Source of the DNA: an uncultured Clostridia bacterium
Lineage (GTDB): Bacteria; Bacillota; Clostridia; Lachnospirales; CAMVHY01
DNA: 35,288 bases
Assembly: GCA_946415665.1 (NCBI GenBank)
Contig: CAMKTI010000003.1
Span: forward strand, 1 to 35,288
Direction of reading: 5' to 3'
Under the pieces are notes generated by a model. The model was not told the origin of the DNA. It saw nothing but the letters and a program-made list of their open reading frames with translations, and did not search any database. Both the position numbers and the translations under genes were made by a program. Of the stretch, positions 1,032 to 34,968 are shown in pieces (the stretch's first letter is position 1; every line of letters begins with the position of its first letter).

Positions 1032-2864
1032 ATGATGAATATGAAAAAATTTAATATTTGTTTGATTGGAAATCCAAATGTCGGAAAAAGTACGGTTTTT
1101 AATTGTTTGACTGGATTGAAACAACATACTGGAAATTGGACGGGAAAAACCGTTGAGACGGCAAAAGGAAATTTTAAAATAGAAAATTATTTTTTCGAGA
1201 TAATTGATTTGCCTGGTACATATTCTTTGGATGCAAAGGCAAAAGATGAAAATATTGCTTGCGAATATATTTTAAAAAATAATTTTGACGCAATAATAAT
1301 TGTTGTGGATGCGAATTGTTTGTCAAGAAATTTATTGTTAGTTTTGGAGATCATGAGATTAAAAAAAAATTTGATTTTGTGCGTAAATTTTATTGATGAG
1401 TTGGAAGAGCAAAATATTTTGTTTGATAGGAATAAATTAAAAAAGATTTTATGTATGCCAATAGTAGAAATCAGTGCAAAAAAAAAATTTGGGTTAAAAA
1501 GATTAAAGTATGAAATATTAAAAATGTGTTTGGGAGATTATAAAAATCATCGTGTGATGAATTTGCCGAATCAAATCGAAAAATTATATGAGATTGGAGA
1601 TTTAATTGAAAAACTTGTTGTTAAAAAAAATTTTAATGTTAGGCAAAAAAATTTTTTTTATGGCTGGGATAAAATTATTTTAAATAAATTTTTTGCGCTG
1701 CCAGTTATGTTTTTATTGTTGTTAATAATTTTTTGGCTAACTATTTTTGGAGCAAATTATTTTTCTGATTGGCTAGCGATTTTATTTGGCGAATTAGAAA
1801 TTTTATTGCGAAAATTATTTTTTTGGTTGGGCATAAATAAATTTTTGACTGGATTATTTATCGATGGAATGTATAGAACACTTGCATGGATCATCGCCGT
1901 TATGTTACCACCGATGGCAATTTTTTTCCCGTTATTTAATATTCTCGAAGATTTTGGCTTATTGCCAAGAATAGCTTTTAATTGCGATGGGATATTTAAA
2001 AAATTTAATTGTCATGGCAAACAAGTTTTAAGTATGTGTATGGGATTTGGATGCAATGCGGCGGGAGTTGTTTCTTGCAGAACAATTAATTCAGAGCGCG
2101 AAAAATTAATCGCTATCCTGACAAATAATTTTACTCCATGTAACGGAAGATTTCCCGGATTAATTATTTTAGCTTCGATGTTAATAAATAAAACTAAAAA
2201 ATTATTTTTGCTTAAAATCGCTGTGATATTAGCTTTAATAATAATCTTTTCGGTTTGTATGACTTTAATAAGCTCAAAAATTTTGGCGCGATTTTTTTTT
2301 AAAGACCGTGAATCGTTTTTTATTTTAGAATTACCGCCTTATCGCAAACCAAAAATTTTTGAGATAATAATAAGATCAGTGTTTGATAAAACTTTAAAAA
2401 TTTTATTTAGAGCTGTTATAGTTGCAATTCCTGCCGGGATTTTAATCTGGTTATTGGCAAATTTAAAATTTAATTCAGTTTCGTTTTTTAATTTTTTTAT
2501 AAATCTTTTTGATCCGTTTGGTAAATTAATTAATCTTGACGGAAAAATTTTAACAGCGTTTTTTTTGGGCATGCCAGCAAACGAAATAATCTTTCCATTA
2601 ATAATTATGGCATATAAAAATAATTCGACATTAATCCCAATAGAAAATTTTAAAAATATAACTTATATCTTAAAATCAAGCGCTTGGACGATAAAAACTA
2701 TTTTGGCCATGATGATTTTTTATGTAAATCATTTTCCATGCGCGACAACTTTATTAACAATCAAAAAAGAAACCGGAAACATAAAATATATGTTTTTGGC
2801 TTTTATTTTTCCAACTCTAATCGGTTTTTTATTATGCTTTTTATTAAATTTTTTTGTGTTTTAA
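1032..2864 (+). CDS. feoB: Ferrous iron transport protein B
   Basis: GNPNVGKS (G1), GNWTGKTVE, DLPGTYSL, GFGCNA and PCNGR gate motifs, ELPPYRKP, multiple TM helices. Confidence 0.96.
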   Translation: MMNMKKFNICLIGNPNVGKSTVFNCLTGLKQHTGNWTGKTVETAKGNFKIENYFFEIIDLPGTYSLDAKAKDENIACEYILKNNFDAIIIVVDANCLSRNLLLVLEIMRLKKNLILCVNFIDELEEQNILFDRNKLKKILCMPIVEISAKKKFGLKRLKYEILKMCLGDYKNHRVMNLPNQIEKLYEIGDLIEKLVVKKNFNVRQKNFFYGWDKIILNKFFALPVMFLLLLIIFWLTIFGANYFSDWLAILFGELEILLRKLFFWLGINKFLTGLFIDGMYRTLAWIIAVMLPPMAIFFPLFNILEDFGLLPRIAFNCDGIFKKFNCHGKQVLSMCMGFGCNAAGVVSCRTINSEREKLIAILTNNFTPCNGRFPGLIILASMLINKTKKLFLLKIAVILALIIIFSVCMTLISSKILARFFFKDRESFFILELPPYRKPKIFEIIIRSVFDKTLKILFRAVIVAIPAGILIWLLANLKFNSVSFFNFFINLFDPFGKLINLDGKILTAFFLGMPANEIIFPLIIMAYKNNSTLIPIENFKNITYILKSSAWTIKTILAMMIFYVNHFPCATTLLTIKKETGNIKYMFLAFIFPTLIGFLLCFLLNFFVF

Positions 2865-3256
2865 AGCTTATTCGTTTTTTAATTTTTTAATAATTTTTTT
2901 TAATCCGTTTGGCAAATTAATTAATCTTGACGGAAAAATTTTAACAGCGTTTTTTTTGGGCATGCCAGCAAACGAAATAATCTTTCCATTAATAATTATG
3001 GCATATAAAAATAATTCGACATTAATCCCAATAGAAAATTTTAAAAATATAACTTATATCTTAAAATCAAGCGCTTGGACGATAAAAACTATTTTGGCCA
3101 TGATGATTTTTTATGTAAATCATTTTCCATGCGCGACAACTTTATTAACAATCAAAAAAGAAACCGGAAACATAAAATATATGTTTTTGGCTTTTATTTT
3201 TCCAACTTTAATCGGTTTTTTATTATGCTTTCTGCTAAATTTTTTTGTGTTTTAAA
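2480..3256 (+). repeat. Tandem duplication (391-bp period) of the feoB 3' end; second copy is a gene fragment (ORF 2854..3255)
   Basis: 2480-2865 is nearly identical to 2871-3256; stop codons end at 2864 and 3255; the few substitutions lie near the ends. Confidence 0.95.
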
Positions 3257-9574: not shown

Positions 9575-9782
9575 CTAAGTCTGTTAACATTTTGGAAAAA
9601 TAACCGAGCTCATATTTCGTGTAGAACATAAGATAAGGTCTCATTAGTATCATGATCGCAGTCGCAAATAATAATTCTATGTCGACTTTATTTTGCTCTT
9701 TTTTTTATTTTTTTCCATTATATTTTATTTTTTATTTTATAGTTTATTTATCTTTTTCTCTTTTTTTTGCGTAAACAGCACC
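9575..9782 (-). mobile_element. Internally deleted IS5 'type A' remnant
   Basis: 9690-9782 is homologous to 510-588 (ttttgctctt...ttccattatatttta...gtaaacagca). Minus strand IICDCDHDTNETLSY resembles the LADxxYDxN transposase segment. Confidence 0.6.
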
Positions 9783-9784
9783 CA

Positions 9785-10639
9785 GATGGCGTTCACACAA
9801 GAGAAAAATCGATTGACTAAAGGGAAAAGGCAACAAGATGGAGCTATGAAACTTACAAAAAATCAACATAAAAAGCTAGATGGATTAACGCCGATAGCGA
9901 GGAAACTGCAAAAGATATCAAACTACAAATTCACGTGTATGATGCTTTGCGTAATAAAAAATAGTTGCAAATGGATGTTTCCACCAAAAAGGTACGGAAA
10001 TTTGTCCACAGTTTATATAAAATCTGGTAGACGGGTAATGAACGGCACAATTGCCAAAAACTATTGCTTTTCTACTTTGAAACCTTAATTTTAGAAGTTA
10101 TAAAAAAGCAAAGACTGCTTAACGAAGAAATTGTGTAGCCATTATTGATAGTACGAGTACAAAGGTTAGTCCAGATGCAAACAAGAATAAAAATAAAAAA
10201 TAATCAAAAATAAAGTATCGGACGCTCGAAAAAGGGTCTGCCGACAAAGTCACACCTATGTCTTGTATCTTCATGCCGAGTTGTCTTTCGTTTGTCTTCT
10301 GGCAACTCCCACGACGCCCCTAAAGAAAGTTGATTGAATCCGCATATTCCAAAAATAATAATTATCTTTTGATAAACTAAACTTACGAAGATGATAAGAC
10401 TTCGGCTTTGGACAAGACCAAAGTTCATGAGTTTTTCACAGTTGCTTGACCTAAAAAAACCGTAAGTTCTCTTGGAACTATAATGAATGGATGCATAGGC
10501 ATCACAACAATACCGCACGATGTTTCAGAATGTCGAAACATTATACAAAGGTTCCACTCGTTATAACAAACTTGATTCCATTTTTATCTTTACTACTCCC
10601 CTTACTTTTGATTTGCTATCTATGTACGTGAACGCTGTC
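9785..10639 (+). mobile_element. IS5-family element 'type B', degenerate near-full-length copy
   Basis: Terminal IRs GATGGCGTTCACAC and GTGAACGCTGTC; decayed transposase MKLTKNQHKKL...YGNLSTVY...IDSTSTKVSPDA...GRSKKGLPTKSHL; flanked by CA/CA. Confidence 0.88.
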
Positions 10640-13196: not shown

Positions 13197-13298
13197 GTGC
13201 TTTTGTTAAAAAAATAATTTACAAATAATATTTTTATAGTGATAGAATGATAATGGTTGTATTTTCAATTCGATTTTTTGATAAGGAGGGAGTTTTTT

Positions 13299-13839
13299 GA
13301 TGGATTCGATTCAAAATAAAAATGCTTTGGATATGTATTGGCATCCAGATGGATACTGTCGTTCCACAAAAGTTTCGTCATTACGCATGTCATGGTTGTT
13401 ATTTAAAAGAATCTTTAAGTTAGTTTTTAATGGTTTTGCAAGACCAGATGGTAAAAAACTCGAAGGGACAGTAATTGAGAAGATTTTAGCTGTTGGATAC
13501 GTTTTGTTTGCACTGTTAGGTTGTTTGGCGTTATTAATTGCTTTGGGTGTATTGGCTGATGCTGGTATTGGACCATTATTTTTTATTTTTCTTGGTATTG
13601 GAGCTTCTCTGCTAGGAATTGTCGCGATTGGTACAATTGTATTTAGTGCGATTTATAAAAAAAATATGCCTGAAGATAAAATTTATTTTTATTGTGGCAA
13701 GACCAACAGAGAAAAACAAATATATTTCGCAAGGGGAAACGCCCTGTTTGATATGCCGAAAAAAGGTTTTAAGCCGTATGATGTAAAAAATATTGACACT
13801 AGAAATTTGATCATTCCCCGATCGCAAGTTTATGATTAA
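13299..13839 (+). CDS. Orphan membrane protein with a central two-helix hydrophobic hairpin
   Basis: ~180-aa ORF (start TTG 13297 or the next codon, ATG 13300) behind AAGGAGG RBS; ILAVGYVLFALLGCLALLIALGVLA-DAG-IGPLFFIFLGIGASLLGIVAIGTIVF. Confidence 0.8.
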
Positions 13840-17109: not shown

Positions 17110-18864
17110 ATGAAAGAAAACGATGGTGATAGTTTAAATTTATTTTTGGGTGATAATAATTCAAAAAAAGATAAATCTAATAACAATACAAACAAACAGG
17201 AACAAAATCAAATTATGATGAATAAAAGTGATTATTCCGAAATCTTAGCGGATGAATCGGTAATTAAAAAAATAAAAGAGAGCGAACAATTAAGCATTGA
17301 TAAAATGAAAAACATTATAGACAAATGTTTTAAAGCAAAGCGTAAAGACCCAAACGCAAATATTATTGATGAGGATTTTTTGCGTTTAGTTTGGAGTTTT
17401 AATTTTAGGTATTACAAAGCTAAGAATAAAACATGTTCTTCTATTGATTATGCATCGGTAAATAAGAATCAATTAAATAATTTGGTTCAGCAACATCCTA
17501 GTGAGTTTTTTCATTGTCTTTATAAGCTTGATATTAAATTTGACGATTTATATATTATCGCCCAAGAAGCGATAAAAAATAGTGATTATAACAGAGAATT
17601 ATCGAGCAGATATCCGAATCAATATAATATTACTCATAAACCTTGGCGTAATAGTATTGCTGACAAAATGTTTTATGATTCGAAAAAAACTTTGGATGTC
17701 AAATTTTTTGTTTGGTTGAATGAAAATGGTTACTTTGCTAAACACGATGAAATTGTTTTTTATCAGTCTTCCGGTCACCATTTTAAGGCAAGTTCTGAGA
17801 AGTTGCCAGCAATTGACGAATTCGAAAATATTTGTAAAAAAAGAAAAGAAGAGAGAATAGGAAATTATAAATTTGAGACGTTTGATGAATTTAAAAAGTT
17901 TGTTGGTCTTGACAAAGACGATGATCAATATAAAAAAGAATATTACCCAAATGTAGCGGTTTCTGTAAAATCATTGTCCGAGATTTTGAAAAAGGAAAAT
18001 AAATTTTTAACCAAAGATGAATTTATAAAACTGATAAATAGAGAAAATATATTTTTTGATAAACCGGGAAATCTCACTGAAGATGATATTAAAGGATGGG
18101 ATAATTATAAAGACTTTGTTAATAAATTAGGAAAAATGACTGACGAAGAAAGAAAAAAAAGACGTGAATCTAGAAAAAAACTTTGGGAATACATGGAGCA
18201 TATTCTTTTTGGTAATCCGAGAAAACAAAATACTCAAGGGCTAACCGATATAAGAAATTTAGACGATGCCGATCTAGAAAATATCGCTGATTGTTTGTCA
18301 AAAAAGTTTGAGTTTTTTACTGGTATAAGCTTATTGTGTGATAATGATGACATTTTCGATAACAAAAAAGACGAAAAGAATAATGAATTCAAATACAGAA
18401 ATTATATTGTTAATAGTTTAAAAAATTTTAAGGGTTTATTCCCATTACTGGAGAATTGCGAAATTAAGCCACAAATAAAAATCGATTTACCGGAGCTAGA
18501 ACAAAAAATAAAAATAACAGGACAAGATAGAAATAAGCTTGTGACGTCCCAGAATGCAACTAGCAGCTGGAAAAGATTAACTGCCGGAATAATTTTATTG
18601 GTGTTTGGAGTTATTGGCTGTGGTAGTGTGGTTTTGGGCTTAGGTTTGGCAAGTAAACTTGCTGTTGCTTTGTTGTTTTTGTTTGTATTTATGATAATCA
18701 CCGGTACATTGTGTTTGTTGTGGAAAAAAATTAGTGATTGTTTAGCTCCGTGTTGTTCGCAAATATTTGATTCAAGGTATCAAAAAAGTTTGATTGACAA
18801 AAGTAAAATTATCAAGCAGGAAATAAATTTCAATTTAACGACCAATAACATCTTGCAAAAATGA
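17110..18864 (+). CDS. Orphan protein with C-terminal hydrophobic hairpin and juxtamembrane Cys cluster
   Basis: 584 aa with ~490 hydrophilic residues, then AGIILLVFGVIGCGSVVLGLG / LAVALLFLFVFMIITGTLCLLW, then DCLAPCC; no signal peptide; no family recognised. Confidence 0.85.
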   Translation: MKENDGDSLNLFLGDNNSKKDKSNNNTNKQEQNQIMMNKSDYSEILADESVIKKIKESEQLSIDKMKNIIDKCFKAKRKDPNANIIDEDFLRLVWSFNFRYYKAKNKTCSSIDYASVNKNQLNNLVQQHPSEFFHCLYKLDIKFDDLYIIAQEAIKNSDYNRELSSRYPNQYNITHKPWRNSIADKMFYDSKKTLDVKFFVWLNENGYFAKHDEIVFYQSSGHHFKASSEKLPAIDEFENICKKRKEERIGNYKFETFDEFKKFVGLDKDDDQYKKEYYPNVAVSVKSLSEILKKENKFLTKDEFIKLINRENIFFDKPGNLTEDDIKGWDNYKDFVNKLGKMTDEERKKRRESRKKLWEYMEHILFGNPRKQNTQGLTDIRNLDDADLENIADCLSKKFEFFTGISLLCDNDDIFDNKKDEKNNEFKYRNYIVNSLKNFKGLFPLLENCEIKPQIKIDLPELEQKIKITGQDRNKLVTSQNATSSWKRLTAGIILLVFGVIGCGSVVLGLGLASKLAVALLFLFVFMIITGTLCLLWKKISDCLAPCCSQIFDSRYQKSLIDKSKIIKQEINFNLTTNNILQK

Positions 18865-23274: not shown

Positions 23275-24150
23275 TTAATATATTTCATAATACAAGTCTA
23301 ATGCTTTCTCAAGCTTTCTTGCGTCTGCAAAGAATCGATTATGATTGGCTTCACGTCTTGTGACACGCCACACTTGTTCTATCGGATTTAGATCCGGAGA
23401 ATATGGCGGAAGGTACACGAACACGACCTGATCATTTATAAAACGCTTTGCTTTTTTATGCCAGGGAGCATTATCCATAATCATGTAGTACTTGCATCCT
23501 TCCGGAGCGGGACATTCGGTAAGAAATGATCTTATGGATTCTATCGTGGTCTTGTAATGAAACCAGCTTGGCTTATGGGCAAAAAACTTTCCGGTGGGCG
23601 ATGTTACAAATCCACTATAAAAAATCTTATTTCCTCTTGGGTATGATTTCACATTAGTCTTGGAGCTTTTTGGAGCTCACATTGAAGTCACACTTGTTTC
23701 TGCCATAAATTGAAGATGCGCTGGCACTGGCGGACACTTAGTTCAACGTCACAATCATATGTCTCTTTTATGTAATCAGAAAGCGTTATGCTGTTCCAAA
23801 CATAGCAACCAGGTTCAGCTGCCGGTTTCAAAAGAGCCTCTTTGATTTTTGCCATTTGCTCATCGCTAAGTTTTGGTTTTTTGCCAGGTTGTTTTTTGGC
23901 GCGAAGAACCTCAAAACCTCCCTCATCAACCTTTTTGACCCATTCGGAAAGTGTACGTTGTAACATAAAGTTAACCTAACCATAGCCACACGAAAAACAT
24001 ATTTTGTATCGTCAGATTGATTTACTATACTCTTGCCTTCGCGTAGCAGTCCTTTTGGATTATGTATAAAGCTTCTTGTATTCATACTCATAGCCCTCCT
24101 CTGACCTTTGTATATAATACCACATTTAAGACGTTTGTAATAGGCAATTA
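23275..24150 (-). mobile_element. IS630-family element, frameshifted transposase pseudogene
   Basis: HTH part (LSEWVKKVDEGGFEVL...PGKKPKLSDEQM...SVRQCQRIF) and DDE part (IMDNAPWH, YLPPYSPDLNPIEQVW) in broken frames; element ends not resolved. Confidence 0.88.
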
Positions 24151-24951
24151 TCATTGTTGTTTACTATAGAACGAAAGCTGAAGAAATCTTGGAGTTATTG
24201 TTATTTTTCGGTGGAATAGTTTTTGTCTCTTTGATTTTACTTGAATTTTTACCATTTGGATGCTGGAGAATCGGTGTGTGCTACATTTGCTTTTGTTGGC
24301 GCAAGTCGTTTTGTTCTCACTAACAGTTTTACAGAAGATCATAATATGTACGAAAATAATCCTGGGCAAGGCTTTGTCGATAACGCATCGGGAGTTTTCC
24401 TGTTTTTTAAGTTGATTGTTTTTCCTACGTTTTTAGTTGTTGCCGGAATTGTACTTATAGTTTTTGGATTCGGTCAGCTTGGTGTTTTAGGTTTTTGTTT
24501 TGGAATGCCAAGTTTAGGCTTATCAATTATGGCACTGATAAATATTGTTTGTGGTAATCGTGGCATGTGTAATGGCTATGAAAATTATAATGATAATTTT
24601 TGGTACACTCACAATTCTGATAATTTATGGAGCACCTTTATGATCATGACTGGTTTCATGTCTATTACTATATTTGAAATTTTGGAATTGATGTGAGTTT
24701 GTACTTGGCAAACTGTTTTAGCTCTCGGTTCACCAGTAATTGCTTTTGCTATATCGATTGTAATTATTTTTGGTGTTACGTATGGCATATATAAATATAG
24801 GTGTAATTTAAGCCCAAAAGTTCAAAACTTAAAATATCAAAATAAAAATTCTAGTAATTTTATACAAATATTAAATCAAAAAAACCGGAAAGAAGATGAA
24901 AAACCGCATTGCTGGTTTTTAGGTCTTGGTTTTGGCATAAGAGAACACTGA
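24151..24951 (+). pseudogene. Disrupted orphan multi-pass membrane protein
   Basis: ORF 24241..24696 has TM segments; the same frame continues past TGA with another TM (LALGSPVIAFAISIVIIFGVTYGI) to TGA 24949-24951; upstream TM segment in another frame abuts the IS630. Confidence 0.6.
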
Positions 24952-27585: not shown

Positions 27586-28434
27586 TTATAAAATGTCAGT
27601 TTTTTCAATAACTTCACAATCCGACGGAATTTTATTATATCGATTTTCTTTGTCGACCTGTTGAAATGATGTAGCCCATTCATTTTCGTTTTGATATTTA
27701 AAAAAGTAAATATCTGTTCTAAGTTTTTGTCTGTTAAAATAAACATTACAAAAGGTAACAACAAGTTTTGAAGCCACTGCCACAATCGCTAACACAAAAA
27801 GCCATTTCGGTACCGTTATTAAAAAACATGAGACAACCGTTATCCAAAACGAGATACCAACAATAATGTGTAATATATTACAATATATCGATTTCCATTT
27901 TGTTTCACGGTAGATGTTTTCTCCTGATAAAAAATTTTTTCCAACAAAACCACCAAAATATATATTTCCAATAATCCTAAAAAAATCACCAATCAAAGTA
28001 GTCGGTTTATTTTTATAAAATTTATCACCATATTCATAAAATTTGGCATGATTTTTCGCCTGTTTTTCCACTTTTTGTTGTTTTTTTTTTGACCGTTTTA
28101 TGTAATCGTCGCGGTAAAGAATAGCACCCAGTACAATTAAACATAAATTAGCCGCCATTGCCACAATCACCAATACAAAAAGCCATGTTGGCAGTGTTAT
28201 TAAAAAATACGAAACAAACAATACTACAGGTAATGATTCGATTGTTAGAAAAAAAATGTTACTAACGAAACCCAAAAACCTATTTAGAATCTCTTCTCCC
28301 GCAACTAAACCAATAAAACCACCGAAATAAATATGTGCAAGCACTTCAAAAAAACAAACTAACAAGTTAGGTTTTCGCGGCGCTTGGGGATTTTCCCCTC
28401 CCGCAAAATCAATTTTTTTTTCACTATTTTCCAT
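27586..28434 (-). CDS. Orphan membrane protein with internal duplication, paralog 1
   Basis: Two copies of P..L...FF....IYFGGF(I/V)G ... S(Y/C)FLIT(L/V)P(T/K)WLFVL.IV; ATG 28434 (MENSEKK) behind GGAGG. Confidence 0.85.
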   Translation of the reverse strand: MENSEKKIDFAGGENPQAPRKPNLLVCFFEVLAHIYFGGFIGLVAGEEILNRFLGFVSNIFFLTIESLPVVLFVSYFLITLPTWLFVLVIVAMAANLCLIVLGAILYRDDYIKRSKKKQQKVEKQAKNHAKFYEYGDKFYKNKPTTLIGDFFRIIGNIYFGGFVGKNFLSGENIYRETKWKSIYCNILHIIVGISFWITVVSCFLITVPKWLFVLAIVAVASKLVVTFCNVYFNRQKLRTDIYFFKYQNENEWATSFQQVDKENRYNKIPSDCEVIEKTDIL

Positions 28435-28519
28435 TTTTATTTTAACCTCCACTTTTTAATAATATTTTGGATTAAGTGTTAAACCAAAAAAGATGTCATT
28501 TAACATACCCCACATAATA

Positions 28520-28713: not shown

Positions 28714-29556
28714 TTATCGATGTAAAACATTTTGTGAACTAATAGATTCAAAATCCGGAACATCAGCTCGATTTTCTTCTCCTACCTGCTTAAGTGATGC
28801 ATGGACTATACTTTCGCCTCGGCATTTACAGAAGAAAAGATCTTTCATTGCTGTTTGTCTCTTACAATAAGAAACACAAAAGTTATTAGCCAATTTTACA
28901 ACCGCCGCTACAATCGCCAATACAAAAAGCCATGTTGGTACCGTTATGAAAAAACACGGAATAACCAGAGCCCAAAAACAGAGCATGTAAATGATCACGT
29001 TAATATTATATTTAGCCATGTCCAATCTCTTGATTTTTTCTCCGTACATAAAATCTTTCCCAAACAAAAAAGCAAGATACTTAGTTCCAATATATCTAAA
29101 AAAATCGCCAATCAAAGTAGTCGGTCTGTTTTTATAAAATACACCGGCATATTTGTAACACTTGACATGATTTTTTGCCTTTTCTTCTGCTTTTTGTTGT
29201 TTCTTTTCTGAAGATTTTGTTTGTGTCTGACGTGAGTCCGGGACTTTTTGTGCCATATTGGTTGCAATTACCAAATTGTATAAATCAACAACCATCTTTA
29301 CAATCGCCAACACAAAAAGCCATGTCGGCAGTGTTATTAAAAAATAAGAAACAAACAACACTATAGGTAATAGTTTGATTATTAGAACAAAGATGTTACT
29401 AATGGAATCTAAAAACCTGTTCGAATACTTTTTTTCAAAAAATAAATCTTTCCCAATAAAACCACTTAAAAAAGTATTTACAAGTACTTTAAAAAAACAA
29501 GTGAACCAGCTCGGCTTTCGAGGCAGTTTTTTCTCAAGATCAAGTTTTTTTTCCAT
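28714..29556 (-). CDS. Orphan membrane protein with internal duplication, paralog 2
   Basis: Colinear with paralog 1 (PRKP, VLFVSYFLITLPTWLFVL, KKQQK.E..AKNH, FYKN.PTTLIGDFFR); upstream ~120 bp also duplicated. Confidence 0.85.
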   Translation of the reverse strand: MEKKLDLEKKLPRKPSWFTCFFKVLVNTFLSGFIGKDLFFEKKYSNRFLDSISNIFVLIIKLLPIVLFVSYFLITLPTWLFVLAIVKMVVDLYNLVIATNMAQKVPDSRQTQTKSSEKKQQKAEEKAKNHVKCYKYAGVFYKNRPTTLIGDFFRYIGTKYLAFLFGKDFMYGEKIKRLDMAKYNINVIIYMLCFWALVIPCFFITVPTWLFVLAIVAAVVKLANNFCVSYCKRQTAMKDLFFCKCRGESIVHASLKQVGEENRADVPDFESISSQNVLHR

Positions 29557-29676: not shown

Positions 29677-30369
29677 GAGAGCGTTCACATAAAAAACAAG
29701 TCAAAAATAAAAGCAATGGAGATGGTAGAGATAAAAATAGAATCAAGCTTATCGTAGCGAGTAAAAACTTTTCTAAAACATTTCAATCTCAGGAAATATC
29801 TTTCGATATTATTGCGTTGTTTATAAAGTTGTTTATCATAACTCCAAGGCAACTTACGATTTTTTTTTAGGCGGGACAACAGTCTTAAACCCGTGATCCT
29901 CGGCTAAAACTAAAGTTTTATCACCTTCGGGAGCATCGTGATAATTACCAGGAGACAAACGAAAAATCGCCGGACATGAAGATATACAACATGGGTACAA
30001 TTTTGTTGTTAACTTTCTTTTGAACATCTGATGCTTTGTTACTGATTATTTTTATTCTTGTTTGCATCTGGACTCACCTTTATGCTCGTACTATCAATAA
30101 AGAATATATAATCTTCTTCATTAAGAAGTTTTTGCTTTTTCATAGCTTCTAAACTTAAGGTTGTAAAAAAAAACAATAGCTTTTGGCAATTGTACCATTC
30201 CATATTTTTTTGGTAATACCCTCCATTTGCAACCATTCTCTATTATGTAAAGCATTGCATACATGAATTTGTAGATTTGATATTTTCGCCGACTTCCTTG
30301 CTATCGGCATTAATTCCTCTAGCTTTTTACATTGTAGTTTTGTCAGTTTCATTTTTCTATCTTACCACT
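29677..30369 (-). mobile_element. IS5-family 'type B' copy, frameshifted, left end lost
   Basis: Right IR GAGAGCGTTCACATAAAA after TA; fragments MKLTKLQCKKL, FIDSTSIKVSPDA, YKQRNNIERYFLRLK..RKVFTRYDKL. Confidence 0.9.
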
Positions 30370-30502: not shown

Positions 30503-30613
30503 TCCGTAGAAATAATTTTTGCAATTAAATTAATGGCTAAATAATTTTAAGCATGTTGTTTTTATTTTATGTTTATGAATCAAAAAATTTAATAAGAGGC
30601 TGATTTTGAAATA

Positions 30614-30841
30614 ATGAGTGAAGAACGAGAAAAAATAATTTTGCCAGACAGAAAAATTTATTTGGATTATTTGAGAGTGTTTGCAATTTTTGCAATGATA
30701 ATGTTACATGTGGCAAGTCAAAATTGGGCTTATATAAATGTAAATAGTTCTACTTGGCAAATATTTAATTTTTTTGATGGAATTTTAAGATGGTGTGTAC
30801 CGATTTTCGTAATGATAAGCGGAAATTTATTTTTTGGATAA
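30614..30841 (+). pseudogene. 5' fragment duplicate of the acyltransferase at 33898
   Basis: First 73 codons nearly identical to 33898.. (one amino-acid difference, several silent changes); RBS region also duplicated. Confidence 0.93.
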
Positions 30842-31232
30842 AAAAATTTATGATGAGAAAAAAAATTATTATTTAAGTGAGCTAGAAAAAGTTAGCCATG
30901 GAATTTATTCGAGTGGGTTTTATTTGGGTGATAAAAAAAATGAAATTTATGAGAGTAGCAGTTATATAAATAATTATGATTTTGTCGGGATAGTAAAGGA
31001 TTTTGACGAGAAAAATTTTTTTGCAGTGGTTGAGCAGAGAAATAAAATTAAAATCGGGGATGAAATAGAAATTTTAGGCAAGAAAAAGATTTTTTATATG
31101 AAAGTAAAGGAAATGTTTGATAATGATGGAAATGAAATAAAAGAAGCACCGCATGCGCAACAGATTATAAAAATTAAAATGGATTTTAAGATTGAAAAAA
31201 TGGATTTAATGAGAAGAAAAATAGTTTGTTGA
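30834..31232 (+). pseudogene. C-terminal fragment of a U32-family (TrhP/YegQ-like) protein
   Basis: ELEKVSH..YSSGFY, YDFVGIV, VEQRNKIKIGDEIEI, EAPHAQQ, DLMRR match the U32 C-terminal domain; catalytic domain and RBS absent. Confidence 0.75.
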
Positions 31233-31304: not shown

Positions 31305-33263
31305 TTAATTATCTATTGTACCATCTCTATCAGCTGGGCTATGTCGATCTGATCCTTGAGCGCCTATAAAATTCTCTTTTCCTTGACTTTGTTCTTGTAT
31401 GTGTTGTATGGATTTATTAGAGCTATATTGTTCCCCGTAAGCTCCAATTTTGTTGGGCAGGGGAGTATAAAGTTTTGTATGTATATAAATTAAGATGATC
31501 CCGACAACTATTGGTACAAGTGGAGGAAGTATAACAACTAACAGACTCAATGCCTCAATAAGTAATAATTTTATTATTAACGTGATAACAAATCCGAGCA
31601 CACCTAAAATTATTGCAGCAATTCCAATATTTCTGAATTTGTTTGAAGGTTTTTGAGTAGAACTGGATTGGGATGAATTACGAGTTTCTTCCGTTTTAGA
31701 TTTACCATTATTACCATTAAAATTAATTTGTTCAATATATTTTTTATTTGCAATATCAATATTTTTCCCTTTATTATATTCACGTTCATTTTGATTGGCG
31801 ACTTGGTTATTGTTGTTATATGGATTATTGCTTTTTCTATCTTCGTTCAAATTTATTTCAGAGTTATTGTTTGTAACATCGTTATTGTTTGTAACATTTG
31901 CTTTTAAAACATCTTCTTTTTGTCCTAAAATATCTGTTTCAATTTTATTTATCTTCTGTTGATCTATTTCGTTTTCAATTGATCTTTCAGAATCAGGAAA
32001 ATCGCTTACATGAACCACTGTGCTAGGTTTTATATTCTTTTTTGCAGGTGTGTCAAGCTCACCTGAAATGGAATCAATAGTACTCATTTTATCGTTATTT
32101 ATATTCTTAAGATACATAACATGCTCGGAGTTTCGTAGGTCACCTGGATTGTTTCCAGTCCCTATCAAAACTAATTTCTTAGACGTAAGATTTTGTTGTA
32201 TATTTTCAACTGTATCGTTCTTGTTATTGGAATCCAGCTTTTTATTGTTTTTTCCGAGAATTATCTGAATACCTACTGATTCGAGTCCATGGTCAATATC
32301 CTGCATATCGAATTTTTTTTCAATATCACCTGAGCTAAGCGTTCTACTTCCATCTTTTTCTAGCGATCCTATATTATTCCAATCAATTCCTAAAACTGTT
32401 CTCTGTCCTTTCACATATTTATATATATCATATTGAGGCTCATTATAACAGTTTTTAAATTTATTTATGCCCATCATAACACATACAGCTTTTTCCAGCA
32501 TTATAATCCATAAAGGTCTCTTATCTTTATCCGGTCTAGTTTTATCCACAACAATATCGACAGGCAATCCATCCTCATCATGAAGTCGTACAACAGCTTT
32601 GTTAGGGCGTTGCTCAATGTCGTTGTCTACATCTTCATTACTTTTATCATCTGCATTTTCTTTGCCTTGATTGTTATCTGGATAATCTCGCACCATTTTT
32701 TTCGGAATATATTTTGCATCGTGATCGATAATTCCTATTATTATCGACAAAAACCAGCAATCCTGGACATCAGATTTTTGTCTTACTGAAAACCTACCAT
32801 CTGGAAGATAAGGATTTGCCTTATCTATCTTTTCACAGTATTGTGAGGGGTTGTTTTTGACTCTGCTTTTTTCATATCTGGGTAAATAATCAAGTACCAA
32901 TGCATCTTTATTATTTTGTTCGGTGCAGCCTTTAGGATAAAGTAATTCACTCCAATTATTAGAATCTTCTTCTTTAAAAAATTCAAAAAGTGCGTTGTCT
33001 GCGTCACCATAACGCTTTGGTGCTTTACAATTATCACCAAAACATTCATCCGGAACATAAACTACAGGAACTTTTTTGTTTTTCGCAAATCGTTTTATAC
33101 AGTCTATTCTGTTTTTATGATATATAAGCTTTTCGTTCTCATCTGGTGATAATTCTTCTTTTTTAGATTTTTCTTGTAGTTTTTTAAATTCTTCACAATG
33201 TTTTTCAAATGAATCATAAACAATCCAATCAATGCCATCACTTGCAATATTTTTATTTTCCAT
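31305..33263 (-). CDS. Calpain-like (peptidase C2) cysteine protease with C-terminal hydrophobic hairpin
   Basis: VRQKSDVQDCWFLS, VDIVVDKTRP, LWIIMLEKA, LRNSEHVMYL; Asn-rich linker; two TM helices; ATG 33263 behind GGGAGG. Confidence 0.72.
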   Translation of the reverse strand: MENKNIASDGIDWIVYDSFEKHCEEFKKLQEKSKKEELSPDENEKLIYHKNRIDCIKRFAKNKKVPVVYVPDECFGDNCKAPKRYGDADNALFEFFKEEDSNNWSELLYPKGCTEQNNKDALVLDYLPRYEKSRVKNNPSQYCEKIDKANPYLPDGRFSVRQKSDVQDCWFLSIIIGIIDHDAKYIPKKMVRDYPDNNQGKENADDKSNEDVDNDIEQRPNKAVVRLHDEDGLPVDIVVDKTRPDKDKRPLWIIMLEKAVCVMMGINKFKNCYNEPQYDIYKYVKGQRTVLGIDWNNIGSLEKDGSRTLSSGDIEKKFDMQDIDHGLESVGIQIILGKNNKKLDSNNKNDTVENIQQNLTSKKLVLIGTGNNPGDLRNSEHVMYLKNINNDKMSTIDSISGELDTPAKKNIKPSTVVHVSDFPDSERSIENEIDQQKINKIETDILGQKEDVLKANVTNNNDVTNNNSEINLNEDRKSNNPYNNNNQVANQNEREYNKGKNIDIANKKYIEQINFNGNNGKSKTEETRNSSQSSSTQKPSNKFRNIGIAAIILGVLGFVITLIIKLLLIEALSLLVVILPPLVPIVVGIILIYIHTKLYTPLPNKIGAYGEQYSSNKSIQHIQEQSQGKENFIGAQGSDRHSPADRDGTIDN

Positions 33264-33873
33264 AATTTTTTGCCTCCCTTGTATCAATAAAAAAACAAAA
33301 AATGAACCGTTTATATATTATTATAATAAATCCAAAAGACAATGTCAACTGTTTTTATTAACATTTATTCATTAAACAAAAAAATTAATTCGATAAATTG
33401 TTTTTTTCAGATCTTTCTTTTAGTTATTTAACACTTTGACGATGGCATTTAAATGAATCATAAGCACCCCAATCAATACCATCACTTGCAATATTTTTAT
33501 TTTCCATAATTTTTTGCCTCCCTTGTATCAACAAAAAAACAAAAAACAAACCATTCATATGTTATTATAATAAATCCAAAAGATAATGTCAACTGTTTTT
33601 ATTAACATTTATTCATTAAACAAAAAAATTAATTCGATAAATTGTTTTTTTCAGATCTTTCTTTTAGTTATTTAACACTTTGACGATGGCATTTAAATGA
33701 ATCATAAGCACCCCAATCAATACCATCACTTGCAATATTTTTATTTTCCATAATTTTTTGCCTCCCTTGTATCAACAAAAAAACAAAAAACAAACTATTC
33801 ATATGTTATTATAATAAATCCAAAAGACAATGTCAGCTGTTTTTATTAATATTTATCCATTAAACAAAAAAAT
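33148..33873 (-). repeat. Three tandem 244-bp units, each promoter + RBS + 5' end of the protease gene
   Basis: Period exactly 244 bp (ATGs at 33263, 33507, 33751). Promoters TTGACA-17-TATAAT at 33320-33348 and 33564-33592; CTGACA variant at 33808-33836. Confidence 0.95.
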
Positions 33874-33897
33874 AACTAAGAGGTTGATTTTAAAATA

Positions 33898-34968
33898 ATG
33901 AGTGAAGAACGAGAAAAAATAATTTTGCCAGACAGAAAAATTTATTTAGATTACTTAAGAGTGTTTGCAATTTTTGCGATGATAATGTTACATGTAGCAA
34001 GTCAAAACTGGGCTTATATAAATGTAAATAGTTTCACTTGGCAAATATTTAATTTTTTTGATGGAATTTTAAGATGGTGTGTACCAATTTTTGTAATGAT
34101 AAGCGGAAACTTATTTTTGAGTAAAGAAATTCTGATTAAAAAATTATATTTTAAGTATATCCTGCGCTTAATAATCGCTTTTTTGTTTTGGTCTTGTTTT
34201 TATGCGTTGGTTGATATTAAAGAAAAAAATTTTATTTCTGTGTATTCGGAATTTATTACGGGGCATTATCATATGTGGTTTATTTTAATGATAATCGGTT
34301 TATATATTTGTGTGCCTTTTATAAAATTAGTTGCTAATAACAAAAATATATCGAGATATTATTTATTAATAACATTTTTGTTTGCGTTTTTTTTGCCACA
34401 AGTTGTTACGCTAGTCAACGATTTTGGTGCAAATTACATGATTAAGGCAGTTTCCAAAATAAATTGCAATATGTCTTTTATGTACATGAATAATGTTGTT
34501 GCTGGATTTGTGCCTTATTTTATTTTAGGGAATTATTTAGATAAAACGGAGCTTAATAAAAAAACAAGAATGATTATTTATATAATGGGCGTATTAGGTT
34601 TTTTTTTAACTGTATATTTAAGTTGGATAGTTTCTGTTAAGGCACAAATTGCGCTTGAAAATTATTATGGACCGTGGCGAGTAAATGTTTTATTTGAAAG
34701 TGTTGCTGTGTATATATGGTTTAAATATAAAAAATATAATGTAAAGAAATTAAATGCGGTTGTTGTTAAGTTATCGAAATATAGTTTCGGAGCTTATTTA
34801 GTTCATGCGTTTGTAATTGAAAAATTAGACATTTTTTTTAGCTTAAATAGTCTGTCTTTTAATCCTATTTTTTCGGTTGTTTTAATAGGCGTCTTGGTAT
34901 TTATTGTTTCGTTTATGATTTCTGGAATTTTAAATAATATTCCTAGTTTAAAAAAATATATTGTGTAA
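33898..34968 (+). CDS. Acyltransferase family 3 membrane protein (WecH-like O-acetyltransferase)
   Basis: YLDYLRVFAIFAMIMLH, RWCVPIFVMISG, HYHMWF, SFGAYLVH; about ten TM helices. Confidence 0.88.
   Translation: MSEEREKIILPDRKIYLDYLRVFAIFAMIMLHVASQNWAYINVNSFTWQIFNFFDGILRWCVPIFVMISGNLFLSKEILIKKLYFKYILRLIIAFLFWSCFYALVDIKEKNFISVYSEFITGHYHMWFILMIIGLYICVPFIKLVANNKNISRYYLLITFLFAFFLPQVVTLVNDFGANYMIKAVSKINCNMSFMYMNNVVAGFVPYFILGNYLDKTELNKKTRMIIYIMGVLGFFLTVYLSWIVSVKAQIALENYYGPWRVNVLFESVAVYIWFKYKKYNVKKLNAVVVKLSKYSFGAYLVHAFVIEKLDIFFSLNSLSFNPIFSVVLIGVLVFIVSFMISGILNNIPSLKKYIV

Follow-up and report, generated by a model that had tools for sequence, protein, structure and literature searches.

A 35,288-nucleotide stretch of DNA from an uncultured Clostridia bacterium (contig CAMKTI010000003.1; genome G000), referred to here as the window, carries on its minus strand a gene for a 652-residue protein, P0001. 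P0001 is a deeply diverged member of the calpain superfamily (MEROPS C2, clan CA), in a clade outside the curated Pfam model PF00648 (Peptidase_C2). We place it there because profile-profile alignment with hhalign, a hidden Markov model (HMM) of its family, BLASTP, an ESM-Atlas search and the predicted fold all agree. Its relatives form a family with conserved catalytic columns, and a two-helix hairpin lies near its C-terminus. We consider it slightly better than an even bet that P0001 is an active Cys-His-Asp calpain-type peptidase, leashed to the cytoplasmic face of its own membrane and engaged in limited proteolysis of membrane-proximal substrates; its activity, topology and type of proteolysis we infer. 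An earlier note, made from the letters of the DNA, had read the gene as a membrane-anchored calpain-like cysteine protease and as a candidate host-directed effector. The first call is upheld by a calpain-core fold (Z 15), an hhalign match of 98.5 % to canonical C2 domains and the ESM-Atlas neighbours; the second is weighed below. The parts of the gene and protein are as follows.

31305..33263, minus strand: complete coding sequence (CDS) of P0001, 652 amino acids (aa), start ATG at 33263, TAA stop at 31305-31307.
33273-33278, minus strand: ribosome-binding site (RBS) GGGAGG, 9 nucleotides (nt) from the ATG at 33263.
33078..33224, minus strand: N-terminal helical hairpin, residues 14-62 (helices 14-35 and 40-62), in an AlphaFold2 (AF2) block with a predicted local distance difference test score (pLDDT) of 89-98 over residues 11-70.
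31989..33074, minus strand: two-lobed calpain-type core, residues 64-425 (VIA-align Z 15.2; hhalign 98.5 %).
32778-32780, minus strand: Gln162, candidate oxyanion-hole residue; in 18/18 relatives a Gln precedes the Cys by 5-7 residues.
32757-32759, minus strand: Cys169, candidate nucleophile in DCWFLS, within QKSDVQDCWFLS; Cys in 18/18, matching the QGxxGDCY/W Cys of canonical C2 domains in the alignment.
32613..32672, minus strand: acidic, clade-specific, length-variable loop, residues 198-217 (pLDDT <50).
Residues 236-244 of P0001: DIVVDKTRP.
Residues 250-259 of P0001: PLWIIMLEKA.
32121-32123, minus strand: His381, candidate general base in SEHVMYL; His in 18/19, placed on the His of GHAYTV by a low-confidence extended hhalign.
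32073-32075, minus strand: Asp397, candidate third triad residue in IDSISG, placed on the Asn of RNPW/Y by the same low-confidence extension.
31641..31925, minus strand: Asn-rich, low-complexity flexible leash of ~95 aa, residues 447-541 (composition).
31464..31640, minus strand: two-helix transmembrane hairpin, residues 542-600, turn at about K565..E570 (Kyte-Doolittle; helix 544-598 in a low-confidence full-length model).
31308..31463, minus strand: variable C-terminal tail, residues 601-652 (52 aa), with 10-25 identities in 37-46 aligned residues among close homologues.

The CDS lies within a single open frame on the minus strand (31305..33287 in the open reading frame (ORF) listing of the window), and its orthologues are intact, at 64-79 % identity in the best BLASTP segment and 69-84 % over aligned columns. 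When codon positions were checked, all of the motifs that the earlier note had named stood at the codons it had given. They are more than chance resemblances, being the most conserved columns of a real family, in a region that folds as a calpain core.

The fold was predicted by AF2 for residues 1-450 from a 22-sequence alignment, with a pLDDT of 83.7 and a predicted template-modelling score (pTM) of 0.88. A Foldseek search of the PDB with this model returned a calpain in every row listed to rank 25 (best E 7.6e-5), with template-modelling scores by target of 0.43-0.50 for the protease-core chains. When the Foldseek list was realigned with VIA-align, calpain cores reached Z 15.2 at a root-mean-square deviation (rmsd) of 3.3 Å over 216-222 aligned residues from both lobes (model 64-423 against calpain-1 33-354), and the next fold class (phytochelatin synthase, PeiR and streptopain) stayed at Z <= 8.1. 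A scan of 48,161 representative chains that was independent of Foldseek yielded four at Z >= 8, three of them calpains (15.0, 14.9 and 12.4) and one a Legionella C1-type peptidase (8.2). The model is thus predicted to contain the two subdomains (PC1/PC2) of a papain-clan core, at Z 15.0-15.2 and rmsd 3.2-3.3 Å. The earlier note had named the lack of a papain-like fold as one outcome of structure prediction that would refute its call; the predicted fold is papain/calpain-like, with Z 15 to calpain cores. The Ca-free m-calpain structure 1df0 fits the model worse (Z 11.8, rmsd 5.8) than Ca- or inhibitor-bound cores (Z 15), a weak hint that the lobes may have been modelled closed. The second helix of the N-terminal hairpin lies in the part of the model aligned with the N-terminal anchor of full-length calpains (from model residue 43/44, opposite chain residue 2, onward), and a further helix at residues 435-446 stands between core and leash in the AF2 model.

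At the sequence level, hhalign matched the family to five canonical, Pfam-positive C2 domains from Lachnospiraceae metagenome-assembled genomes (MAGs) at 98.5 %, E 3.7e-15, over 99 columns that run from before the Cys to LW..EKA; the target set omitted the best intermediate. A greedy extension of this alignment pairs His381 with the GHAYTV His and Asp397 with the RNP Asn, with low confidence. Intermediate sequences bridge the two groups. The family HMM matched all eight long C2-bearing frames at 16.7-85.8 bits (L021-L028, where L023 and L028 represent a single protein), and L023, with 85.8 bits, is itself above the Pfam cut-off (the PF00648 gathering threshold is 23.8 bits). BLASTP of canonical-C2 proteins against the family gave E-values of 1e-6 to 5e-11, calculated for a small database, as for L036 with P0027 (5e-11 over 394 columns). 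In the ESM-Atlas language-model search, 28/30 of the nearest clusters were Peptidase_C2, with a score of 0.93. Simpler searches were silent: phmmer of P0001 against PDB sequences gave no match at E <= 10, an NCBIfam search of P0001 gave weak membrane-helix matches and no peptidase, the profile of family alignment A2 retrieved coiled-coil or low-complexity noise and no calpain from the PDB, and PF00648 was not found in 401 genomes sampled across the phylum. Pfam matched P0001 below its cut-offs to DUF3671, DUF2207_C and Tetraspanin; these matches lie in the hairpin and the low-complexity region and were set aside as compositional.

Conservation of the catalytic columns was counted in 19 aligned domain sequences that are 22-85 % identical to the query. 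Cys occupies the Cys169 column in all 18 sequences that cover it, His the His381 column in 18 of 19, and position 397 holds Asp in 15, Glu in three and Asn in one (n = 19); the AVVRLHDEDGLPVDIVVDKTRP..RPLWIIMLEKA block is nearly invariant in the family alignment. Conserved Cys and His are what the earlier call of a protease would lead one to expect. The one departure at the His column is P0016, which has Arg there with Cys and Asp retained; a sequencing error may be involved, or the protein may be a pseudo-enzyme. The order of residues along the chain is Gln, Cys, His and then Asp, Glu or Asn; His and Asp are set in register with GHAY and RNP only by the low-confidence extended hhalign. RNPWG is the third-residue motif of calpains, and the canonical C2 domains aligned here carry RNPW/Y. 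Distant members of the family have RDPYG, MDPY, FDPL, LDPL or VNPI at the third-residue position, which we read from the aligned sequences as the register of calpain RNPWG. The earlier note's suggestion that the triad may be Cys-His-Asp, with IDSISG in place of RNPWG, probably holds, distant relatives having RDPYG, MDP and VNP at the same place. An Asp in the position of the triad Asn has a precedent in PalB, which is still thought to be functional in the account of it given by Rawlings (2015; PMC4631099).

The only hydrophobic stretch of P0001 in a Kyte-Doolittle scan is residues 542-600, which is long enough for two helices, and the scan found no signal peptide and no N-terminal hydrophobic segment. 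Together with the composition of the leash, this agrees with the two-helix hairpin, Asn-rich stalk and missing signal peptide described in the earlier note. Both flanks of the hairpin are rich in Lys and Arg in 11/11 hairpin-bearing members (for example SNKIKK ... YFYRNNKKP), and its turn, again in 11/11, has few residues and little or no charge. Under the positive-inside rule, Lys/Arg flanks mark the cytoplasmic side, and moving a 540-residue N-terminal domain across a membrane without a signal peptide would be unusual. Because both flanks are basic and a signal peptide is lacking, the most likely topology is N-in/C-in, which would leave the protease facing its own cytoplasm on the Asn-rich leash. 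In this topology the first hairpin helix would serve as a signal anchor of the N-in type and the second would bring the chain back, leaving protease and tail in the bacterium's cytoplasm, attached to the membrane's inner face. From there the enzyme may make limited, site-specific cuts in membrane-proximal substrates, in the manner of calpains.

The order of core, spacer, hairpin and short tail is shared by the paralogue on contig C26 of the same genome, the same-genus orthologue of that paralogue, P0008, P0014, P0016 and P0017, and paralogues at 27-36 % identity retain the protease-spacer-hairpin architecture. The parts around the core are more variable. The leash contains an 18-nt tandem repeat at 31863-31897 and differs in length between alleles, P0002 and P0003 having an additional repeat module of ~75 aa. 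In P0017 (1788 aa), which is 71 % identical over 1011 residues to a paralogous frame on contig C117, the leash is replaced by a ~500-aa helical tandem-repeat spacer, as read from its sequence. The acidic loop at residues 198-217 is absent in P0008 and distant relatives and variable among close homologues, and within the tail the letters at 31315-31382 are replaced by others in the contigs of X1 and X4.

The calpain-like family of P0001 is rare, patchy and real. A word-indexed search of 5.8 billion clusters found eight proteins including the query, six of the others 64-79 % identical (best BLASTP segment) and one 27 %, and an exhaustive HMMER search of 1.84 billion representatives found 20 at E<=1e-3, 12 at E<=1e-10 and three at E<=1e-30. 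In 15 relatives scanned, no known enzymatic Pfam domain was found, the matches being of coiled-coil type only. Besides P0001, the window's genome (1.73 Mb in 176 contigs, 87 % complete) encodes two paralogues: C26 carries a frame of 615 aa, and C117 one of at least 1028 aa that is cut by the contig end. A genome of the same genus holds two family members. Among 41 related genomes sampled, the family occurs in two and the other 39 have none; in the class sample, the window's own genome is alone among 399 scored, two further genomes having yielded no score. Five family loci in genome contigs come from uncultured Clostridia and Lachnospiraceae MAGs, and metagenome contigs of the Joint Genome Institute (JGI) contained three loci with alignment A2, all Lachnospiraceae-type, and none with alignment A1. 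No relative was found on the viral contigs, phage records or plasmid records searched.

In the Lachnospiraceae relatives, the family domain is C-terminal in proteins of 660-1450 aa, and the products of adjacent genes terminate in a canonical C2 or an ABC1-kinase domain. In the four genomes from which loci L007-L010 come, PF00648 has 10, 2, 5 and 0 matches, in frames of 461-2927 aa, and the 10 matches of one Lachnospiraceae MAG fall in at least six large open frames. Nine C2-bearing ORFs fetched whole are 740-1912 aa long, without a hydrophobic segment, and carry the C2 domain in their C-terminal half, at the very end in most. The canonical Peptidase_C2 proteins L033-L039 score 43.6-69.2 bits on PF00648; they come from genomes G440-G442, Lachnospiraceae MAGs that carry several 740-1912-aa proteins ending in a canonical Peptidase_C2 domain. 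One Lachnospiraceae family member is adjoined by a 1912-aa gene with QGHLGDCYF and 45.4 bits on PF00648. At loci L038 (2-1693, 1845-7580 and 7602-11999) and L009 (1-3120 and 3110-8728), consecutive giant genes differ in their C-terminal enzyme domains, which are of the family's calpain-like, canonical C2 or ABC1 atypical-kinase type. The layout looks like an array of effector-like modules. No N-terminal domain common to the giant relatives was found, and this lack of a shared N-terminal trafficking domain argues against a classical polymorphic-toxin layout.

A 2181-nt metatranscriptome contig covers 31100-33264, and with it the whole CDS, at ~98 % identity, and a second contig covers 33235-33508. 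In the same RNA run there is no cover at 30531-31054 and almost none beyond 33544 (depth 0.44, one bin); DNA runs cover parts of these flanks. The pattern is consistent with transcription of the gene, though it does not prove it, since the evidence is contigs and DNA may occur in RNA libraries. DNA holders of the sequence are animal-gut runs from several studies, mostly labelled bovine gut metagenome.

Several observations weigh against an active calpain-type peptidase on the inner face of the membrane. PF00648 does not match P0001 at E<=10 in a Pfam search, matches 0/22 family members at E<=10 and is absent from six frames of the window's genome at the same threshold, so that calpain membership rests on profile-profile, intermediate-sequence and fold evidence. 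Of the Peptidase_C2 search that the earlier note had suggested, the Pfam part accordingly came back empty and the profile-profile part gave 98.5 % and E 3.7e-15. The full-length AF2 model, from an 8-sequence alignment, is of low confidence (pLDDT 37.2, pTM 0.34). The positive-inside argument is a rule of thumb, and at 87 % completeness the missing secretion genes discussed below prove little. Some relatives have an apparent ~500-aa coiled-coil stalk (read from sequence), and stalks of this kind are more usual in surface fibrils. The Lachnospiraceae relatives, with the domain at the C-terminus of giants beside other enzyme-domain genes, present an effector-like pattern. Finally, the gene changes fast. 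Against the ~98 % identical allele, 26 of 27 changed codons are non-synonymous (one allele pair; 34 of the 38 differing letters were used). Between the C26 paralogue and its same-genus orthologue (one pair), the ratio of non-synonymous to synonymous rates (dN/dS) is 0.52 for the whole protein, 1.0 for the N-terminal part and 0.41 for the core; the adjacent NUDIX gene has 0.11 in the same comparison. Outside the catalytic block, these substitutions show the family to be under weak or diversifying constraint. This fast evolution is the main evidence against a plain housekeeping role, and it keeps readings of P0001 as an effector or a defence protein alive.

Export is the alternative that survives best. 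P0001 would then be an effector or toxin that leaves the cell by a non-classical route, enters a foreign membrane (of a host, a protist or a competitor) by its hairpin and presents its core to the target cytosol, as Inc-type effectors do; these combine a bilobed hydrophobic hairpin with a dedicated injection system. We regard this as unlikely, if worth keeping in view. P0001 has no signal peptide and bears a bilobed hydrophobic hairpin; its divergence is fast and mostly non-synonymous; one genome has three paralogues, with loop, leash and tail variable between strains; and the distribution is patchy (2/41 related genomes; the window's genome alone among 399 in the class). The Lachnospiraceae relatives of 660-1450 aa, with their C-terminal domain beside C2- and ABC1-kinase-ended proteins, fit such a role, as do a small, pseudogene-rich genome and the presence of the sequence in animal-gut runs. 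However, the charge distribution favours N-in/C-in in the producer's own membrane, and neither WXG100 (PF06013), EssC (TIGR03928) nor the flagellar-export protein FHIPEP was found in the 87 %-complete genome. The comparison with Inc-type effectors shows the hairpin in P0001 and, on the side of injection, these three undetected and a type IV secretion system (T4SS) coupling-protein homologue on contig C83. P0001 does not qualify as a type VII toxin, a Pfam search having found no WXG100/LXG domain in it. No immunity-like gene adjoins the gene, its neighbours being a truncated U32 peptidase, insertion sequence (IS) fragments and an acyltransferase; it was not found on the phage and plasmid records or viral contigs searched; and no N-terminal trafficking domain common to the giant relatives was found. 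The host-directed effector of the earlier note is therefore left without support, with a Lys/Arg pattern in 11/11 hairpin-bearing members that points to N-in/C-in and with no WXG100, EssC or FHIPEP found; nothing in the analysis points to the deubiquitinase activity for which it had suggested an assay.

A more far-reaching form of the same idea, that the hairpin-anchored calpains of this genome-reduced gut Clostridium are eukaryote-directed effectors, exported by an unrecognised route and inserted into host or protist membranes, strikes us as improbable. If it held, the host cytosol would be the site of action of a leashed calpain core, the giant paralogue having a ~500-aa coiled-coil rod for its leash, and arms-race evolution would explain the excess of amino-acid changes.

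It is similarly doubtful that the calpain-like fold of P0001 serves something other than peptidase function, whether as a scaffold, as a pseudo-enzyme or in other thiol chemistry of a transpeptidase- or isopeptidase-like kind, as in phytochelatin synthase and PeiR, whose basic fold is the same. Phytochelatin synthase and the pseudomurein endoisopeptidase PeiR are indeed the second-tier structural neighbours, at Z 7.8-8.1, and the Arg at the His column of P0016 is compatible with lost activity in that protein. In addition, following the argument made by Rawlings in the parts of the 2015 paper drawn on here (PMC4631099), perhaps no bacterial calpain has yet been characterised biochemically. Against this stand a Cys, a His and an acidic or amide third residue that are kept across 22-85 % identity, and calpain cores that score about twice as high as any other class. 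An active peptidase remains the reading we prefer.

The surroundings of the gene are rearranged. The gene stands alone; downstream and convergent, a U32 peptidase C-terminal domain survives as a 132-aa remnant (30834-31232), preceded by a 75-aa acyltransferase remnant, and a full copy of the acyltransferase gene lies upstream, divergent, at 33898-34968. IS fragments occupy 29685-30352. The repeats and promoter-like sites at the locus are the following.

30554..30845, plus strand, and 33838-34129: 292-nt direct repeat of the acyltransferase 5' end (89 %; 91 % over 281 nt).
33148..33879, minus strand: three tandem 244-nt units, each comprising a promoter, an RBS and ~27 initial codons; identity to the first unit is 85-88 %.
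33320..33348, minus strand: proximal promoter-like site TTGACA-17-TATAAT, 12/12.
33564-33592 and 33808-33836, minus strand: further promoter-like copies, 12/12 and 11/12.

The calpain-like gene lies between the two copies of the 292-nt repeat, each of which comprises the promoter and first 75 codons of the acyltransferase gene; the left copy runs into the U32 remnant. The two distal 244-nt units stop after 27 codons and so encode 27-aa truncated N-termini (MENKNIASDGIDWGAYDSFKCHRQSVK); a tblastn search with the N-terminal 39 residues matched at 33391-33507 and 33635-33751. To our reading, the tandem units are relics of gene turnover here and, at the same time, a stack of promoters. A promoter cassette shared by a variable gene family was considered and dropped, because the 244-nt repeat is not spread through the genome, where it has two short, weak blastn matches, on C117 and C91. 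A single-gene anti-phage or abortive-infection module, in which an invader is sensed by, or sets off, the protease domain and membrane damage follows from the hairpin or its release from the leash, would suit the rapid evolution, the patchy distribution, the rearranged locus with its IS fragments and duplications and the stand-alone gene with its own strong promoters, but we think it very improbable, since P0001 and its paralogue have no PADLOC or PHROGs match (PADLOC 2.0: 0 families for seven proteins, namely P0001, the C26 paralogue and five neighbours; PHROGs: one weak unnamed match, E 0.007, for the neighbour at 27589-28452), no recognisable defence genes lie nearby and a triplicate constitutive consensus promoter would be odd for a toxic effector.

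Elsewhere the window contains housekeeping and sporulation genes (topA, dprA, rpsI, rplM, aroK, spoIIIAF/AH) and several broken genes, which together indicate a sporulating Clostridium with signs of genome decay. Such signs lie at 1032-3255, 9693-10088, 23275-23652 and 29685-30352, and include a feoB split into two overlapping frames and transposase fragments (DUF4096, DDE_3 and DDE_Tnp_1_2). Several other membrane proteins of the window also have hairpins. A 584-aa protein at 17110-18864 is laid out like P0001, with no signal peptide, a large hydrophilic N-terminal part that Pfam, PADLOC and PHROGs leave unmatched, and a C-terminal two-helix hairpin; C115 carries a weak paralogue. The paralogous ~285-aa membrane proteins at 27586-28452 and 28714-29556, 48 % identical and without a Pfam family, are each an internal duplication of a hairpin unit, with more copies on C47 (two) and C101. 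Small hairpin membrane proteins of no known family are encoded at 24241-24696 and 13297-13839, the former belonging to a multi-copy family with matches on C31, C82, C8, C38 and C77.

Compared with known systems, P0001 shares with the cores of human calpain-1, -3, -8 and -9 (PF00648) a two-lobed papain-clan core (Z 15, rmsd 3.2-3.3 Å, 216-222 residues), and with classical calpains in general the order Gln, Cys, His and third residue and the motifs DCW(F/L), VVD..P and LW..LEKA. It differs from classical calpains in its identity to them of 14-18 %, with no PF00648 match even at E<=10, in having Asp for Asn, IDSISG for RNPWG and a His-to-third-residue spacing of 16, in lacking C2L and EF-hand domains (no EF-hand or C2 Pfam match) and in its C-terminal membrane hairpin. 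The clade thus extends the calpain superfamily beyond Pfam recognition and sets calpain cores in a new architecture of core, spacer and C-terminal hairpin. The phytocalpain DEK1 of eukaryotes is predicted to be membrane-associated, with a cytosolic calpain core and a large multi-spanning N-terminal anchor. P0001 would resemble it in having a membrane-associated cytosolic core, and differs in carrying a C-terminal hairpin instead of a multi-spanning N-terminal anchor. The Lachnospiraceae canonical C2 proteins (L033-L039) are the nearest relatives that pass the Pfam cut-off and likewise have no signal peptide; unlike P0001, they keep GHAYTV and RNPW/Y, carry the domain C-terminally and have no hydrophobic segment or membrane hairpin. 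A search of titles and abstracts found no literature on calpains of gut or rumen Clostridia. A soluble construct of 450 residues, with an obvious Cys-to-Ala control, would make bacterial calpain biochemistry directly testable, and one may ask what conflict or adaptation lies behind the fast evolution.

PalB and the calpain-7 type, as treated in Rawlings (2015; PMC4631099), share with P0001 the Asp in place of the triad Asn and, unlike it, are eukaryotic. For bacteria, the passages of the same paper drawn on here count 67 calpain homologues in seven phyla, with 19/681 Firmicutes species among the holders, one homologue per species and membrane helices predicted in three proteins (Rawlings, 2015; PMC4631099). 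P0001 resembles these proteins in being rare, patchy and free of EF hands, and in that some of them occur in Firmicutes and some have a predicted association with membranes. It differs in belonging to a clade that is invisible to PF00648 and evolves fast, and an N-terminal core with a C-terminal hairpin is not among the architectures in those passages. Contrary to the one homologue per species published there (PMC4631099), some gut Clostridia carry several calpain paralogues: three in the window's genome, and 10 PF00648 matches in a single Lachnospiraceae MAG.

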